DNA of 64,000 bases from Candidatus Babeliales bacterium (GTDB lineage: Bacteria > Babelota > Babeliae > Babelales > JANWKD01): the NCBI GenBank assembly GCA_963762115.1, contig CAVXJH010000005.1, positions 1 through 64,000 of the forward strand. Reading direction: 5' to 3'. Numbering within the stretch: position 1 is the first letter of the stretch; each line of letters begins with the position of its first letter. This document shows positions 2,881 through 33,391 of this stretch, one piece after another. The notes beneath the pieces were generated by a model. The model was not told the DNA's origin. It saw nothing but the letters and a program-made list of their open reading frames with translations, and did not search any database. The position numbers were made by a program, and so were the translations under genes.

Positions 2881-3057
2881 GCATTGGAAAAATATGAATT
2901 GTTTGTGAGTTCTGAAGTTGAGGAAAAACGGCAGCTTATCAAGCTTATACTATCGAACTTGAGGCTAAAGGGGAAAAAGCTTAATATTTTGACCATTAAT
3001 TTTACGTTACAGCACATCCAGACGGCCGTGTCGGGCGACCTGTCCGAAGAAGCTTAA
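2881..3057 (+). pseudogene. C-terminal remnant of a large serine recombinase
   Basis: Own translation: KYELFVSSEVEEKRQLIKLILSNLRLKGKKL-NILTINFTLQHIQTAVSGDLSEEA*; resembles LSR C-termini; tail shared with 4688-4792. Confidence 0.6.
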
Positions 3058-3143
3058 GCGAAGTCGGAAGCTCATAGCGAAGACTAAAGATAATAGATTT
3101 TTTTGAGGTTACAAGATTTTTTTACTTTGTAATAACAACAAGG

Positions 3144-4687: not shown

Positions 4688-4792
4688 CGGTGTCACATAG
4701 TGGATGCATGCAGGAACAATATTTTGACTATTGATTTCACATTACAGCACATCCAGACTGCCGTGTCGGACGACCTGTCCGAAGAAGCTTAA
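4688..4792 (+). pseudogene. att-junction / recombinase C-terminal tail
   Basis: Translates RCHIVDACRNNILTIDFTLQHIQTAVSDDLSEEA*; starts at GGTGT, the same bases as the reverse complement of the tRNA 3' end. Confidence 0.5.
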
Positions 4793-4897
4793 GCGAAGTC
4801 GGAAGCTTGTAGCGAAGACTGATGTTTCGATCGTTTAATATTGCATTAGAAGAATACTAAAAAAAATGCCTCCGACAGATTTTAGTATCGGAGGCTA
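4741..4897 (+). repeat. ~160-bp repeat (recombinase tail, REP-like hairpin, terminator); partial copy 3007-3087, inverted copy 14721-14883
   Basis: TTACAGCACATCCAGAC.GCCGTGT.GG.CGA.CT.TCCGAA.AAGCTTAAGCGAAGTCG.AAGCT..TAGCGAAGACT in all three copies; GCCTCCG...CGGAGG stem in two. Confidence 0.9.
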
Positions 4898-7091: not shown

Positions 7092-7296
7092 AAAGGTAAC
7101 CCCATTTTTGATAACTATTATTTATAACTCTATAAAGATAGATTACCTTAATTTTACAAAGTCGTCTAACGCCCCATAATAAATTTCAAATAGAAATGAT
7201 ACTATTGACTAAGAAAAAGTTCTATTGTATATAGGCTTATGAGTGATGCAAACTTTAAAATTATTCTTAGACAATTGGGCAGCAGCTGCTGCCCAA

Positions 7297-7470
7297 TTAT
7301 GAATTTGATTTTTTATTAATTTTACTATCTTTCTTAAAAGATCCTAAATCAAAAGAAACCTCTTGTTTTAAGCTTTCCTTAAGACGTTCTAAAATTTCTT
7401 TATTTGCCGGATCAAATAACCAGCGTTCTTCTTCAGAAATTTCTTTCATAGGTTCTAATCTCTTTATATA
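7297..7470 (-). pseudogene. Antitoxin-like C-terminal fragment
   Basis: LEPMKEISEEERWLFDPANKEILERLKESL...DLGSF resembles small antitoxin C-termini; no convincing start; bracketed by palindromes. Confidence 0.4.
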
Positions 7471-7616
7471 TGTGCCCGATATATTGAATTGTCCCACAGC
7501 TGTGGGACAATTGTAAAATGAAATTTTTTTGTAATAAGCAATTTTGCAACAGCTGCTGCAAAATTATAAATTTGAAGAATTTAGACAAACTATCCTCAAA
7601 GAAAGCATCAATAACT

Positions 7617-7951
7617 TTATTTATGTAGAGCAACTGCTTCATGTACGATTTTCGCAATTGTTTTTAAAGTAGGATTACCTTTTTTAGAGAAAGCTTGCGT
7701 AATGGTTACTCTCGTTAGATTTATTTGTGTGCAATTTGCGTTCTATTTACACATAAAAAGGCATCTAATATTTCCATAAATGTTTCAGTATCATTTTCGA
7801 TCAAGCATTCAAACAACGCTTTAGCAACTTCATTCTTATTTCCAAATAATTCTGATGCCTTTGAAACATTTAATTTAGATTCATCAATTTTAAGGGGTTG
7901 TAAATCGCCTAATGAAAATTCGTGCTTTTTTAATGTCTTTTTCTTGTTCAT
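7617..7951 (-). pseudogene. HTH addiction-module antidote protein, frameshifted
   Basis: ALFECLIENDTETFMEIL...NRTQIA, then in a shifted frame NLTRVTITQAFSKKGNPTLKTIAKIV; shift near 7720. Confidence 0.7.
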
Positions 7952-9084
7952 TATTTAGCTTTCTTTTTCTTGCTAACTTTTTTTGTTTTTTTGGGGGCTG
8001 GTTTTTTTTCTGCAACTTCACTCTTACTGAGCTCTGCTTCAATTTCTTTTATAGTAGGTAGTTTGCCCTTAAATTCTTTTGGTAATGTTTCAACTAATTT
8101 AGTTGTATAACTTGATATGCCGATGGGTTGTTTGCTTGTACTTAACGCATATTCGGCTACAAAATTATCTTTTGATTTGCAGAGTAATAGTCCTATAGAG
8201 GGCAAATCTCCTGGATGTCTTAATAGCTTATCAACTGCAGCTAAATATAAATTAATTTGGCCTAAATCTCTGGCATCAAATTCTTCTGCTTTCAGTTCAA
8301 CAACAATAAAACATCGTAGTTGCAAATGATAAAAAAGCATGTCGATAAAAAAATCCTTGGCTCCTACTTTTAAAGGATATTGCCTTCCTATAAAAGCAAA
8401 TCCTTGTCCAAGTTCTAACAAAAACTTTTGAATATGTTCCATGAGGCCCAATTCAATTTCTCGTTCTCGTGCTTTTTCATCAATAGTTAGAAAATCAAAA
8501 ATATAAGGATCTTTTAGGGTCTGTTCAGCTAAATCAGAACTTGGTTCAGGCAGAGTAATTTTAAAATTGGTTATTGATTTGCCTTGTCGGCTATATAAAT
8601 CAGATTCAATCCACATAGAAAGCACACTTCTGCTCCAACCATTTTCAATGGTTTTTTTGGCATACCAAAGTCGTTGTTTATTATCCTGAATTTTTTCTAC
8701 GATAGCAGCGTTATGGCCCCATGGCAGCATTAAAAGAGGATTTTCTTCTATTTGTCCCACAGCTGTGGGACAATTTGGATAAGCGGTATAAAACGCAATC
8801 ATTCTGTATATATTTGTTCTTGAAAATCCGGTTATTCCGGGAAATGCTATCTCTAAATCATGAGCTAATTTTTCTACAACCTTGGCACCCCAACCCTCAA
8901 CGTTCATTTTTTCTGAAAGATCTTTTCCAATTCTCCAATAAAGCAAAGTCAGTTCTGTGGTAACTGATAAAGCTGCCTTAAGTTGTGTTTGAAGAATATC
9001 TTTTTTTATGTGTTCTAAAAACTGAGCATAATTTTTAGGCTCCATAGTTTTTTTTTGAACTGTATTCTTTTTTTTCATGAACAT
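7951..9084 (-). CDS. DUF1016 / YhcG-family PD-(D/E)XK nuclease-domain protein
   Basis: LYWRIG, GWGAKVV, GFSRTN, LPWGHN, GWSRSVL, KDPYIFDFL, FLLELGQGFAFIGRQ, FIDMLFYH, VELK. Confidence 0.93.
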   Translation of the reverse strand: MFMKKKNTVQKKTMEPKNYAQFLEHIKKDILQTQLKAALSVTTELTLLYWRIGKDLSEKMNVEGWGAKVVEKLAHDLEIAFPGITGFSRTNIYRMIAFYTAYPNCPTAVGQIEENPLLMLPWGHNAAIVEKIQDNKQRLWYAKKTIENGWSRSVLSMWIESDLYSRQGKSITNFKITLPEPSSDLAEQTLKDPYIFDFLTIDEKAREREIELGLMEHIQKFLLELGQGFAFIGRQYPLKVGAKDFFIDMLFYHLQLRCFIVVELKAEEFDARDLGQINLYLAAVDKLLRHPGDLPSIGLLLCKSKDNFVAEYALSTSKQPIGISSYTTKLVETLPKEFKGKLPTIKEIEAELSKSEVAEKKPAPKKTKKVSKKKKAK

Positions 9085-9270
9085 CTTTCATCTTTTTAAG
9101 GCTATTCGCGGGTAGATTGCAAAAGCATCTTCTCTATTAAAATCTTAATATTCATAAGTGTTATGTCAAATCAGCTACCATCTCTTTATGCTTTCATGAT
9201 AAACTATGAAAGATGTAATAGAATTAGTGCAGCAGCTGCTGCACTAATATTTGAAATCGAAAGTTGAAAT

Positions 9271-18109: not shown

Positions 18110-18290
18110 TTGATCTTGACAATCAAGTAATTTTAAGTTTCCTTATTAAATAAGATATTACTAAATGACAGGATTAAATCAGAAGACAAATACATGAAAA
18201 GAACAGTGTATTATTTTTTTATAATAAATATTTTTATCTCATGTTTGACTATAGATGCAATTGAACTAAAAGAAATTCAAACCGAACTCA
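18110..18290 (+). repeat. 181-bp direct repeat of 20608-20788 (promoter region plus first 32 codons of 20692-21117)
   Basis: Near-identical sequence including TTGACA and ATGAAAAGAACAGTG...ACCGAACTCA. Confidence 0.95.
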
Positions 18291-20177: not shown

Positions 20178-20691
20178 ATTGAATTCTCCTAATATATTTA
20201 ATAAATATTGATAATACTATCAATACAATTAGTATATTACAGATTGAATAATCAAAACAAGGGTTTGGTATTTGTTTTAAAGTTAACAACCTCGCAGCAT
20301 TTTCATTATCACAGCTTATTACTTCAACAAGAAGAAAAATTTGAAATGGCAATGTAATATTTTGTTGTTCCTTTGTTATGTCTGCTCTCCTATTTTGATT
20401 AGATTAAATATCCAATACCTTAAATCTAATCCCTTTCGGTTGCTTCACCAATATCTTTGCCAATAGATGAAGGGAATGCAATAACATGAGGATATAATCG
20501 TTGCTATCATGCTTGATGTGTTCAGAACCTTGCCTACTAATTTCATTTTCTTTAAATGCTTGCCCATCTATTCTTATGCAAAGATTCCATCTACAAACAC
20601 AACCATTTTGATCTTGACAATCGAATAATTTTAAGTTTTCTTATTAAATAAGATATTACTAAATGACAGGGTTAAGTCGGGAGACAAATAC

Positions 20692-21117
20692 ATGAAAAGA
20701 ACAGTGTATTATTTTTTTATAATAAATATTTTTATCTCATGTTTGACTATAGATGCAATTGAACTAAAAGAAATTCAAACCGAACTCATAAGTAGCAAAA
20801 GAGGATTAGAAGATATCAGAAAGGCACTTACTGACATAAGCTTGGATTTAAAACAAGATTTGGAAACATTTTGTGGTGACTTTTGTATTCAGCTTGATGG
20901 CGTGGATCAAAAATATAACCAATTAATTATTGATATTCAGGAATTTTTTAAGAATCTACAGAAACAGCCAAAAGAAGATCAATCTTCCTTACTAATTGCT
21001 AAAACAAGTGAAATGAACATAGTAATTTCAGAAGTGAAAAATGAGAGTAAGTCCTTGATAACAGCCTATCATCAATTGCTTGCAGAAAAAATTCCCCATT
21101 TAAATTCACGATTATAA
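20692..21117 (+). CDS. Secreted coiled-coil protein
   Basis: Signal peptide; heptad pattern; GGAG RBS. Confidence 0.65.
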   Translation: MKRTVYYFFIINIFISCLTIDAIELKEIQTELISSKRGLEDIRKALTDISLDLKQDLETFCGDFCIQLDGVDQKYNQLIIDIQEFFKNLQKQPKEDQSSLLIAKTSEMNIVISEVKNESKSLITAYHQLLAEKIPHLNSRL

Positions 21118-30960: not shown

Positions 30961-31986
30961 ATGATTCACAATGCACAAAAATTAAACATTCCCACAATTT
31001 TTTTAATTTTATTATTACCTTTATTATGTACTTGCTCTATTTATTCCATGGAGAAAGGTAAGGAAAAAGAAACAGAAAAGTCCAGCCTCTTAAGCAACAA
31101 GCAAGCTAAGCACTCAAGATATGTACCTCAACAAAGCACGGAATTAACGCCCTTTGAAGCACTTCCCGATGAAATAAAGGAATACATTGAAGACTTTTTA
31201 GAAGGGAATGATTTTGGACTTAACAACTTAGTGCAACATACACATTTTCACCCAAGTCCTTCAACCGCGCAACGCATAGAAGAAGCATTTGTATTCTATG
31301 CAATTAGAAAAGCTCAATCTGAATCTCATGATTTAAAACAAGATAACTTAAAAGATAAACTTAAATTGGGATCCTCTATAATACTTTTTTCTAACCATAG
31401 ATTAAAAAGTTTATTTTCCAATTATTTTGAAGATGTCAATCTATTAGATGAAGCTATACCATCTTATCATCTGAGTTTTCTTGACAAGTGCACAAATGCA
31501 ACAGCAAGCACTGATGAACTCAATGAAAAAGTAATAAAAATAGCCTCAAAAAAATTTTCCAATACTACTCTTGCTAGATGGCATAGTTTAAGTAATAACA
31601 TTAAAGAATCAACTGAATATTCTGAATTTGCAACCATGAGAAAACAAATCTTGAGCTACTTTGCTCAACGTGTTCAAGCTTATTCAAAAAAAACCCGCGG
31701 AGAGTGTAAAACCTGCAAGTTTTTGCCTGGCTATATTTTTTGTGCTTGTGGCGCAACCAATATAGCACTTGGCACTATGCTTGCAATGTTCTATACGTTA
31801 ATACCCGGAATCGTATATGCTACAGCCATAGGCGGTGGTTGCGTAGCTCTTGGTCATCCAGCACTATGCTGTGATACTCCTTGCAATAGCTATGATTATT
31901 CTGAACTTTTTGCCAGACAACCAAATAAAGAAAAAATAACAACATTAGTAAATCTAATCAATCGTTACAAGGATAAAATCAATTAA
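30961..31986 (+). CDS. Secreted protein with F-box-like motif and C-terminal hydrophobic Cys-rich segment
   Basis: FEALPDEIKEYIEDFL; two C-terminal hydrophobic helices. Confidence 0.6.
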   Translation: MIHNAQKLNIPTIFLILLLPLLCTCSIYSMEKGKEKETEKSSLLSNKQAKHSRYVPQQSTELTPFEALPDEIKEYIEDFLEGNDFGLNNLVQHTHFHPSPSTAQRIEEAFVFYAIRKAQSESHDLKQDNLKDKLKLGSSIILFSNHRLKSLFSNYFEDVNLLDEAIPSYHLSFLDKCTNATASTDELNEKVIKIASKKFSNTTLARWHSLSNNIKESTEYSEFATMRKQILSYFAQRVQAYSKKTRGECKTCKFLPGYIFCACGATNIALGTMLAMFYTLIPGIVYATAIGGGCVALGHPALCCDTPCNSYDYSELFARQPNKEKITTLVNLINRYKDKIN

Positions 31987-31997
31987 GAATAATGAGA

Positions 31998-32014
31998 TCG
32001 TGACATTTTGTCAC
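31998..32014. promoter_or_regulatory. Palindrome upstream of the Bro-N gene, identical to in-gene 32305-32321
   Basis: TCGTGACATTTTGTCAC at both positions. Confidence 0.7.
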
Positions 32015-32123
32015 AGACTGACATTAACGCCTCAAAAAATTTTACTCTTATTAAACTATTTGTTATTTTATTCTGAATGCTTATAAAAAATAAATTTGAT
32101 AAAATTTAACTTTTAGGACCTTT

Positions 32124-32963
32124 ATGCCAACAAATGAATTAACAAAAAATTACATTTTTGATGGTACACGAATTCGTAAAAAATTATTCAATAACGAATG
32201 GTATTTTTCAATTGCAGATATTTGTAACGTTCTTATCGAAAGTTCTGATCCTGGTGCTTATTGGAGAAAACTTAAACAAAGGTTAATTTCAGAAGGAAGT
32301 GAAGTCGTGACATTTTGTCACGGGTTGAAATTAATTGCACCTGATGGGAAGCAGAGAGAAACTGACTGCGCCAATACAGAAGGGATATTTCGCATAATTC
32401 AATCTATTCCATCACCAAAGGCTGAACCATTTAAACTTTGGTTAGCAAAAGTCGGCAAAGAACGTATTGATGAAATTGAGAATCCCGAACTTGGTATTGA
32501 AAGAGTTAAAAGTCTTTATGAGAAAAAAGGCTATAAAAAAGATTGGATTGGAAAAAGATTGCGCGGCATAGCTGTTCGTCAACAACTTACTGATGAATGG
32601 TCTGATAGAGGAGCCGAAAAATCAATTGATTATGCAATATTAACAAATGACATTATGCAAGGTGCATTTAACTTAAAAGTTGATGATTATAAAAAACTTA
32701 AAGGAGTTGAAAAAGGTAATCTTCGTGATCATATGACTGATTTAGAACTTATAATAACTATGCTAGGCGAAGCAACAACAACGCAAATTACTCAACAAAA
32801 AGATTCTACTGGAATGCCAAGATTAAGAAATGATGCAAAAGTTGGTGGTGCCCTTGCTGGAAGAACTCGAAAAGATATTGAGCAACAAATTGGTAGTTCT
32901 GTAATTACAAAAGAAAATTTCTTGCCGAACAAAAAAAATAAAAAAAGCATTGAAAATATTTAA
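32124..32963 (+). CDS. Bro-N domain DNA-binding protein
   Basis: WYFSIADI, YWRKLKQRL, APDGKQRETDCA, IIQSIPSPKAEPFKLWLA, NLRDHM. Confidence 0.9.
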   Translation: MPTNELTKNYIFDGTRIRKKLFNNEWYFSIADICNVLIESSDPGAYWRKLKQRLISEGSEVVTFCHGLKLIAPDGKQRETDCANTEGIFRIIQSIPSPKAEPFKLWLAKVGKERIDEIENPELGIERVKSLYEKKGYKKDWIGKRLRGIAVRQQLTDEWSDRGAEKSIDYAILTNDIMQGAFNLKVDDYKKLKGVEKGNLRDHMTDLELIITMLGEATTTQITQQKDSTGMPRLRNDAKVGGALAGRTRKDIEQQIGSSVITKENFLPNKKNKKSIENI

Positions 32964-33391
32964 TCATAATGAATTTTTGCACTTCTCATTTTTTTAATTT
33001 CACCACGATGCGTCTTTTTGCGTAAGCGTGCTTCTTTAGTCGATTTTGAAACTTTTGTTTTCATACGCTTTTTGGGCACATGCAATGCTTTTCTAATTTC
33101 TTGTGCAAGTTGATCAAGTGCCATCTTTTTGTTTTGTTGCTGACTTCGTGATGCACTATTATGCACCAAAAAATCGCCTTCGCTCGTAACTTTGGAAGCA
33201 AGATTTTGTAACACACGTTGCTTTTGCTCGTCACTCAAAGCTGCTGTTGTGTTAATATTCCAACGCACGGTAATGCGTGTATCAGTTTTGTTGACATGTT
33301 GCCCACCAGGACCGCCTGCACGACTTGTGGTGATTTCTAATTCTGCTTCTGGAATTACAATACCATTTTTAACGGCTACATCATTTTTCAT
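32960..33391 (-). CDS. arfB: Alternative ribosome-rescue peptidyl-tRNA hydrolase ArfB
   Basis: SRAGGPGGQHVNKT, RSQQQNK, basic C-terminal tail. Confidence 0.93.
   Translation of the reverse strand: MKNDVAVKNGIVIPEAELEITTSRAGGPGGQHVNKTDTRITVRWNINTTAALSDEQKQRVLQNLASKVTSEGDFLVHNSASRSQQQNKKMALDQLAQEIRKALHVPKKRMKTKVSKSTKEARLRKKTHRGEIKKMRSAKIHYD

Follow-up and report, generated by a model that had tools for sequence, protein, structure and literature searches.

A palindrome that lies within the reading frame of a putative DNA-binding protein, and recurs just upstream of it, raises the question of whether the gene carries the binding site of its own product and whether the upstream copy belongs to the same design. 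We analysed such a locus, a Bro-N gene in a 64,000-nucleotide stretch from a Candidatus Babeliales bacterium (the window; coordinates in Table 1). The 17-mer TCGTGACATTTTGTCAC is found at 31998-32014 and at 32305-32321, confirming the two copies, one in the gene and one upstream, that the first-pass annotation had described, and the window holds no further match at up to three mismatches. Shuffled sequence gave a mean of 0.18 matches to the 17-mer and reached two matches in 1 of 100 shuffles. Its core, GTGACA-N3-TGTCAC, has exactly two copies in the genome of 1,530,897 bases. The in-gene copy, about 185 nt into the gene, encodes V62-T-F-C-H66. The stop of the preceding ORF lies 13 nt before the upstream core, and the ATG 109 nt past the end of this core; the upstream copy read in frame would give NEIVTFCHRLT.

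Table 1. Features of the window referred to in the text, with positions counted from its first nucleotide.
Feature	Position	Strand	Remarks
Bro-N gene	32124..32963	+	279-aa ORF; Bro-N winged-helix N-domain, then helical C-terminal part; PDC-S13; DdrC-like overall fold (predicted)
Predicted recognition helix	32250..32291	+	codons 43-56; A45, R48, K49, Q52 and R53 track palindrome bases in homologs
In-gene site	32298..32330		core GTGAC-ATTTT-GTCAC at 32307-32321, codons 62-66; outer arms partly symmetric; putative self-operator
Solo upstream site	31991..32032		core 32000-32014; family-like flanks from about -9 to +33, background beyond
DUF1016/YhcG gene (PDC-S02)	7951..9084	-	own in-gene palindrome at ~8750-8775; parallel case
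Three solo DUF1016-type palindromes	7273-7298, 7487-7512, ~7540-7565		downstream of the DUF1016 gene; 7487-7512 identical to the in-gene palindrome
Solo DUF1016-type palindrome	9223..9248		upstream of the DUF1016 gene; not cognate

The Bro-N gene and its family

The assignment of the gene to Bro-N is borne out by a Pfam match (PF02498) over residues 22-109 (E 3.4e-12; 47.3 bits against a curated cut-off of 25.6), and the PADLOC profile PDC-S13 spans residues 10-275 of the 279-residue protein (E 1e-112), a full-length match. Matches to the phage antirepressor Ant of PHROG were weak (E 9e-5 and 6e-4), and the E. coli equivalog DinD (NF008573) was rejected, at 18.4 bits against a cut-off of 242 and over residues 151-227 only. 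Pfam, PADLOC and other profile searches found no catalytic domain in the protein. Six promoter consensus matches were obtained in a scan of 31900-32400 (shuffles, 2.4 +/- 1.6), none of them convincing for the Bro-N gene; the scan showed neither a terminator nor a terminator-like tail. At its other end, the stop of the gene is overlapped by 4 nt by an RF-1-domain (ArfB-like) gene at 32960-33391 on the minus strand.

The family occurs sporadically: matches were obtained in 26 of 201 genomes from the phylum, in several of them only as fragments, and members at 43-63% identity are also present in archaea, Patescibacteria, phages and plasmids. No neighbouring gene is conserved, the largest neighbour cluster comprising 10 of 147 loci. 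Homologs of this PDC-S13 protein do lie inside cas operons: two of them (L034, L052) are embedded among or adjoin cas genes, and the neighbours of three others (L044, L045, L050) are, judging by their sequences, presumably cas genes as well. Such embedding may reflect nomadism rather than defence. The PDC set is presented by its authors as one of phage defence candidates only, and the terms S13, Bro-N and 'palindrom' do not occur in its main text (10.1101/2024.01.29.577857).

The in-gene palindrome and the recognition helix

Our collection of 197 loci (170 anchored by the pattern, 24 unanchored and 3 without a hit) contains 148 distinct ones; leaving out L035, we collapsed the remainder to 130 distinct rows of helix plus site. 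A perfect 5+5 core is present in 120 of these rows, against a mean of 9.5 and a maximum of 19 in 500 synonymous recodings that kept the same peptides and the codon usage of each gene, and the outer arms are paired at 4.45 of 6 positions, against 2.97 in the recoded controls. Of 128 control stretches taken from these genes, 4 held a comparable palindrome. There are 22 different half-sites, and the 5-nt spacer between them is 97% A/T; arms of 5 bp around an A/T spacer are the geometry of a dimeric helix-turn-helix operator. When 22 unanchored loci and L035 were re-examined free of the pattern, 20 of the 23 showed at least four of five pairs at codons 59-66. L035 is an intact homolog without the palindrome and counts against our best explanation. 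A regulon of exact sites was not seen, most genomes with an intact gene of the GTGAC type having one copy, and a REP-like dispersed repeat was rejected, since exact copies number 0-2 in each of the 201 genomes and this one holds four family-like sites.

Two other kinds of repeat were observed in this genome. Near-palindromes with an A(A/T)GTATTG arm are dispersed between genes in seven copies (C3:502268 and 513810; C5:112642; C6:27598, 149453, 301875 and 397053) and are possibly a regulon or a parS-like site. Within the window, direct repeats of up to 107 nt lie 2.5 kb apart (18110-18290 and 20608-20788), and others of 37 nt lie 1.7 kb apart (3007-3072 and 4742-4807).

The predicted N-domain (pLDDT 85) consists of a hairpin, a strand, two helices and a wing, that is, a winged-helix fold. 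In such a motif the second helix is the usual recognition helix, and helix 43-56 holds that place. The N-domain matches granulovirus Orf22 (Z 8.9), Mbp1 (7.2), Dachshund (6.8) and the N-domain of DdrC (6.5), all middling scores at 7-10% identity; Foldseek with the N-domain alone returned nothing at E 0.001 or better.

Relating each residue of this region to the bases of the palindrome, we observed that normalised mutual information peaks at positions -1, +2, +3, +6 and +7 from a conserved tyrosine, Tyr46 (up to 0.51, 0.56, 0.84, 0.42 and 0.97, respectively). These five positions form one face of the helix and are encoded 9-17 codons upstream of the palindrome, whereas the linker positions +9 and +10, equally variable and nearer the site, reach 0.11 at most. 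The correspondence takes the form of simple rules, which agree with the usual protein-base chemistry: at +3, K or R goes with G (61/66), D with C (27/27) and V with T (22/22), V being grouped with A and T, and D with M, in our tables; at +2, K or R goes with G (46/46); and at +7, R goes with C (101/101) and K with A (26/26). The first-pass annotation had proposed that the palindrome itself codes for the recognition segment. This proposal is not supported, since the predictive residues are 45-53, in helix 43-56, and the palindrome codes for 62-66; in the N-domain model the latter fall between the helix and the wing, where contact with DNA is possible.

As a held-out set we took 80 new metagenome loci, of which 68 could be anchored and 53 were distinct and not identical to the training rows. 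The fixed rules were right in 52/53, 52/52 and 43/43 cases, 10 rows with Asn at +2, which is ambiguous, being left out of the last figure. The half-site was predicted by the helix in 44 of 53 cases, against 7 of 53 by the nearest neighbour in the C-terminal part. On a FastTree tree of the C-terminal part (124 rows, with L031 and five short ones excluded), 10-13 independent pairs changed the same way and none the opposite way (median p <=0.001), and three linker controls were not significant. Helix and site are transferred as a single module, so neither the independent pairs nor the held-out rows are all independent origins of the code. Exceptions to the base-3 rule are found in 4 of the 22 half-site types and in 4 of the 8 plasmid genes to which it could be applied, and they are frequent in a divergent subtype.

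The covariation might be mere co-inheritance, the palindrome being a hairpin, selfish or of mutational origin, that a tolerant loop accommodates. Helix and palindrome do lie 30-50 bp apart and are swapped as a block; however, the linker residues within that block carry no signal, 18 of the 22 half-site types obey the base-3 rule, and for residue combinations absent from training the predictions were right in 16/17, 16/16 and 14/14 cases. We consider co-inheritance extremely improbable as the whole explanation.

A second alternative places the function in the hairpin, either as RNA (translational control, a pause or processing) or as single-stranded DNA read by another enzyme. Folding is predicted for both copies at our locus (-9.0 and -11.6 kcal/mol; z -1.9 and -2.6), and G-T accounts for all three of the transition mismatches in core positions 3-7. 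Over all arm positions, however, mismatches number 39 G-T, 27 A-C and 167 other, and in the core non-pairing mismatches outnumber G-T by 7 to 3. Moreover, a hairpin by itself leaves the base-specific coupling to one helix face unaccounted for, and there is no terminator-like tail; we regard this alternative as very unlikely.

The bases of the palindrome change in step with five residues of the helix, and the protein therefore likely binds its own gene. We hypothesize, with a probability of roughly two in three for the reading as a whole, that the product binds its in-gene palindrome and so throttles its own transcription, and that the upstream copy is left over from a sister gene. In the proposed mechanism a dimer would read each half-site through five residues of one helix, and the occupied site would act as a roadblock to elongation, making it an intragenic self-operator that brings about autorepression. 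Selection would hold helix and site matched, presumably on account of the cost of an unrepressed copy. Whatever the promoter in front of it, a gene of this kind would limit its own expression, in keeping with the lack of a fixed neighbourhood, and new specificities would escape cross-repression by resident relatives.

Comparison of near-identical genes shows that helix and site move together between them as a module of 90-200 bp, in agreement with the exchangeable cassette suggested by the first-pass annotation. In 30-nt bins from -420 to +659, identity between L136 and L181 is 91-100% outside the stretch from -60 to +29, where it drops to 50-71%; the pairs L173/L185 and L151/L187 show the same local dip. 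This comparison comprised nine pairs, the rest being too divergent or of one type. On the tree the half-site type changes 70 times, against 76-85 when shuffled. A system of variation from silent cassettes was rejected, most solo sites, including the one at this locus, having no helix codons. One strain of Chondrinema litorale has 11 replicons with one Bro-N gene each (L037, L286-L295; a different C-terminal part), which among them carry 10 different left half-sites and in 6 of 11 cases a perfect palindrome. An annotated rep or par gene lies within 4 kb on 6 of the 11 replicons; a centromere-like role was rejected, there being no extra copies within 3-4 kb.

Upstream copies, solo sites and gene remnants

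The first-pass annotation treated the upstream duplication as part of the design. In the model that follows from it, the two copies form a functional pair, a promoter operator together with the in-gene copy, and the palindrome codes for the recognition segment. Identical 17-mers 307 bp apart fit such a pair, and at L062, whose upstream copy shares the asymmetry of the in-gene site, and L151, whose copy is cognate, the spacing is alike (283-307 bp at these two and our locus). However, a solo site lies upstream, 283-500 nt before the in-gene site, in only 6 of 138 loci with enough flank (three of them cognate, including this locus), leaving 132 of 138 without; a second set gave upstream hits in 4 of 64 loci, none cognate and one of them inside an ORF6N gene. 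Six of the nine upstream sites found, among some 200 loci, are thus not cognate. Homologs mostly lack a matching upstream copy, which was the outcome that the annotation had named as speaking against its proposal. In addition, L151 and L187 share the same upstream site while their in-gene modules differ, and the predictive residues are encoded outside the palindrome. We judge an operator pair improbable: it is the in-gene site that matters, and the upstream duplication mostly does not.

The sequence around solo sites points to their origin. Family-like sequence forms a continuum from whole N-terminal fragments, through decayed genes, down to a bare site with flanks of about -9/+33, as at our locus. 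Elsewhere in this genome, a remnant of the TCGAC type at C6:222398 has decayed helix codons and its own matching helix, and a degenerate GTGAC site lies at C3:570638. The remnant at L358 likewise retains its own matching helix. In genome G027 (L030, L020) an N-terminal fragment stops mid-palindrome, 1.4 kb before a full gene with a partly deleted palindrome. A recent duplication from the gene itself was rejected for the copy at our locus, which is identical at 33 of 51 positions to its own gene and at 35 of 51 to three other genes. Exact cognate extra copies, found in 2 of 148 cases (one being this locus), are nevertheless commoner than non-own ones (5 of 4265 pairings). We conclude that the upstream copy is probably the remnant of an earlier sister gene; it may still bind the protein, as an auxiliary operator at this locus.

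Bare sites survive, stack in mixed arrays and, with six in the 57 kb just upstream of intact genes against two in 1.12 Mb elsewhere, are about 60-fold denser there, which a mere remnant leaves unexplained. Mixed arrays with sites 32-68 bp apart occur in G130, G090, G135 (twice), G109 and G036, five genomes in which no intact gene was found; at L359 three remnants of three types lie directly upstream of a gene of a fourth type; and in the congeneric genome G177, again with no intact gene found, two solo sites precede the same downstream gene. At L284 (G135:C17:43000-47500) a GTGAC site paired with a TCGAC site is present on either side of four genes that span 2.2 kb, and some 40 nt after the first of these pairs begins an operon resembling a nucleotidyltransferase-HEPN pair. 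The arrays, the density upstream, the absence of a common neighbourhood and the shrinkage of solo sites to the size of a footprint (33-45 bp) would suit a role of the bound site in mobility or memory, in which the protein shields or bridges the site on incoming or broken DNA, pieces centred on the site are captured, and new genes of the family land beside old sites without a recombinase. DdrC, whose fold the Bro-N model shares, protects and circularises DNA in vitro (PMC9303277). Against this role, no catalytic domain was found, and remnant lengths are continuous, as expected from passive erosion. We think it unlikely as the main function; it is compatible with a self-operator and does not exclude one.

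Other families and known systems

The generality that the first-pass annotation had inferred, of DNA-binding proteins with a putative own site in the gene, is supported beyond Bro-N (120/130) by RhuM-N, with a palindrome in 53 of 61 distinct genes (52 of them at codons 64-67) and in none of 59 controls, by DUF1016 (22/30, codons 107-114) and by ORF6N (2/2). The helix covariation figures are those of the Bro-N family, and for the other three the case for generality is made by the in-gene palindromes. The centres of DUF1016-type palindromes measure 0 or 1 nt, so the frame of the left arm differs between homologs, and it is the DNA symmetry that is kept, not the peptide. At the DUF1016 locus of the window the arrangement is not the one first described as shared with Bro-N: the identical extra copy lies about 450 nt downstream, and the palindrome upstream departs from the in-gene one at 4 of 10 arm bases. 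A search of the 201 genomes from this phylum found RhuM in one and neither ORF6N nor KilA-N in any.

A wider reading would make Bro-N/PDC-S13, RhuM-N, ORF6N and DUF1016 unrelated nomadic, self-addressed genes, each with a swappable module of helix and operator; the bound operator would aid the survival of the gene and its landing beside older sites without a recombinase, and stacked bare operators would be a kept record of past specificities through which a locus senses, titrates or excludes incoming relatives. We regard this extension as doubtful.

The proven precedent for a self-operator is C.Kpn2I, whose site lies within its own reading frame and acts as an elongation roadblock; its authors note that promoter-independent autoregulation suits horizontal transfer (PMC6237814). 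As there, we find in the Bro-N genes an inverted repeat with an A/T-rich centre in the gene's own frame, and a site sequence that depends on the recognition helix, here by covariation. C.Kpn2I is an XRE-type protein that serves a restriction-modification system and has one motif near the gene start, whereas the Bro-N genes, which have no partner genes, combine a Bro-N/KilA-N-like fold and a putative site about 185 nt in, next to the codons of the helix, with a readable code that covers at least 22 site variants and with exchange of the module. We accordingly rejected an XRE C-protein with a restriction-modification partner, given the Bro-N fold and the lack of conserved neighbours.

Like the Bro-N genes, ParB-parS and Noc-NBS have a palindrome specificity set by few helix residues; they comprise two specificities with several sites per chromosome and a known role in segregation (PMC7383237), whereas the Bro-N genes have at least 22 specificities and typically one site, in the gene.

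DdrC of Deinococcus radiodurans (PDB 7qvb, 8u0g) is the top match to the whole Bro-N model (Foldseek E 2.7e-5; Z 11.3, rmsd 9.5, 162 aligned), with hairpin, winged helix, long helices and helical bundle; the winged-helix N-domain followed by a helical-bundle C-domain is thus found in both, at an rmsd that is high and a Z below 13 for a helical protein. The available text describes DdrC as a damage-induced, DNA-compacting dimer whose classic winged helix has its elements in the same order, and not as sequence-specific (PMC9303277); identity to the Bro-N protein is 13-14%. The winged helix of DdrC, the closest full-length structure, is negatively charged (PMC9303277), which argues against a self-operator.

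The winged-helix domains of KilA-N/APSES (Mbp1), Dachshund/SKI and MerR/RacA type resemble the Bro-N N-domain in fold, and we know of no in-gene self-site in any of them. Within the open literature, most subscription journals lying outside this coverage, we found no account of helix-matched in-gene palindromes in the families described here.

On the self-operator reading, the target of nearly every member of large families of unknown function, several of them listed as defence candidates, could be predicted by reading its gene. The paired helices and operators would amount to a natural library that spells out a simple protein-DNA code, and they could supply orthogonal feedback parts that work independently of the promoter. 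Orphan intergenic palindromes would be explained as traces of gene turnover, and self-limitation is a possible reason why such genes can follow any promoter, whether in bacteria, archaea, phages or plasmids.
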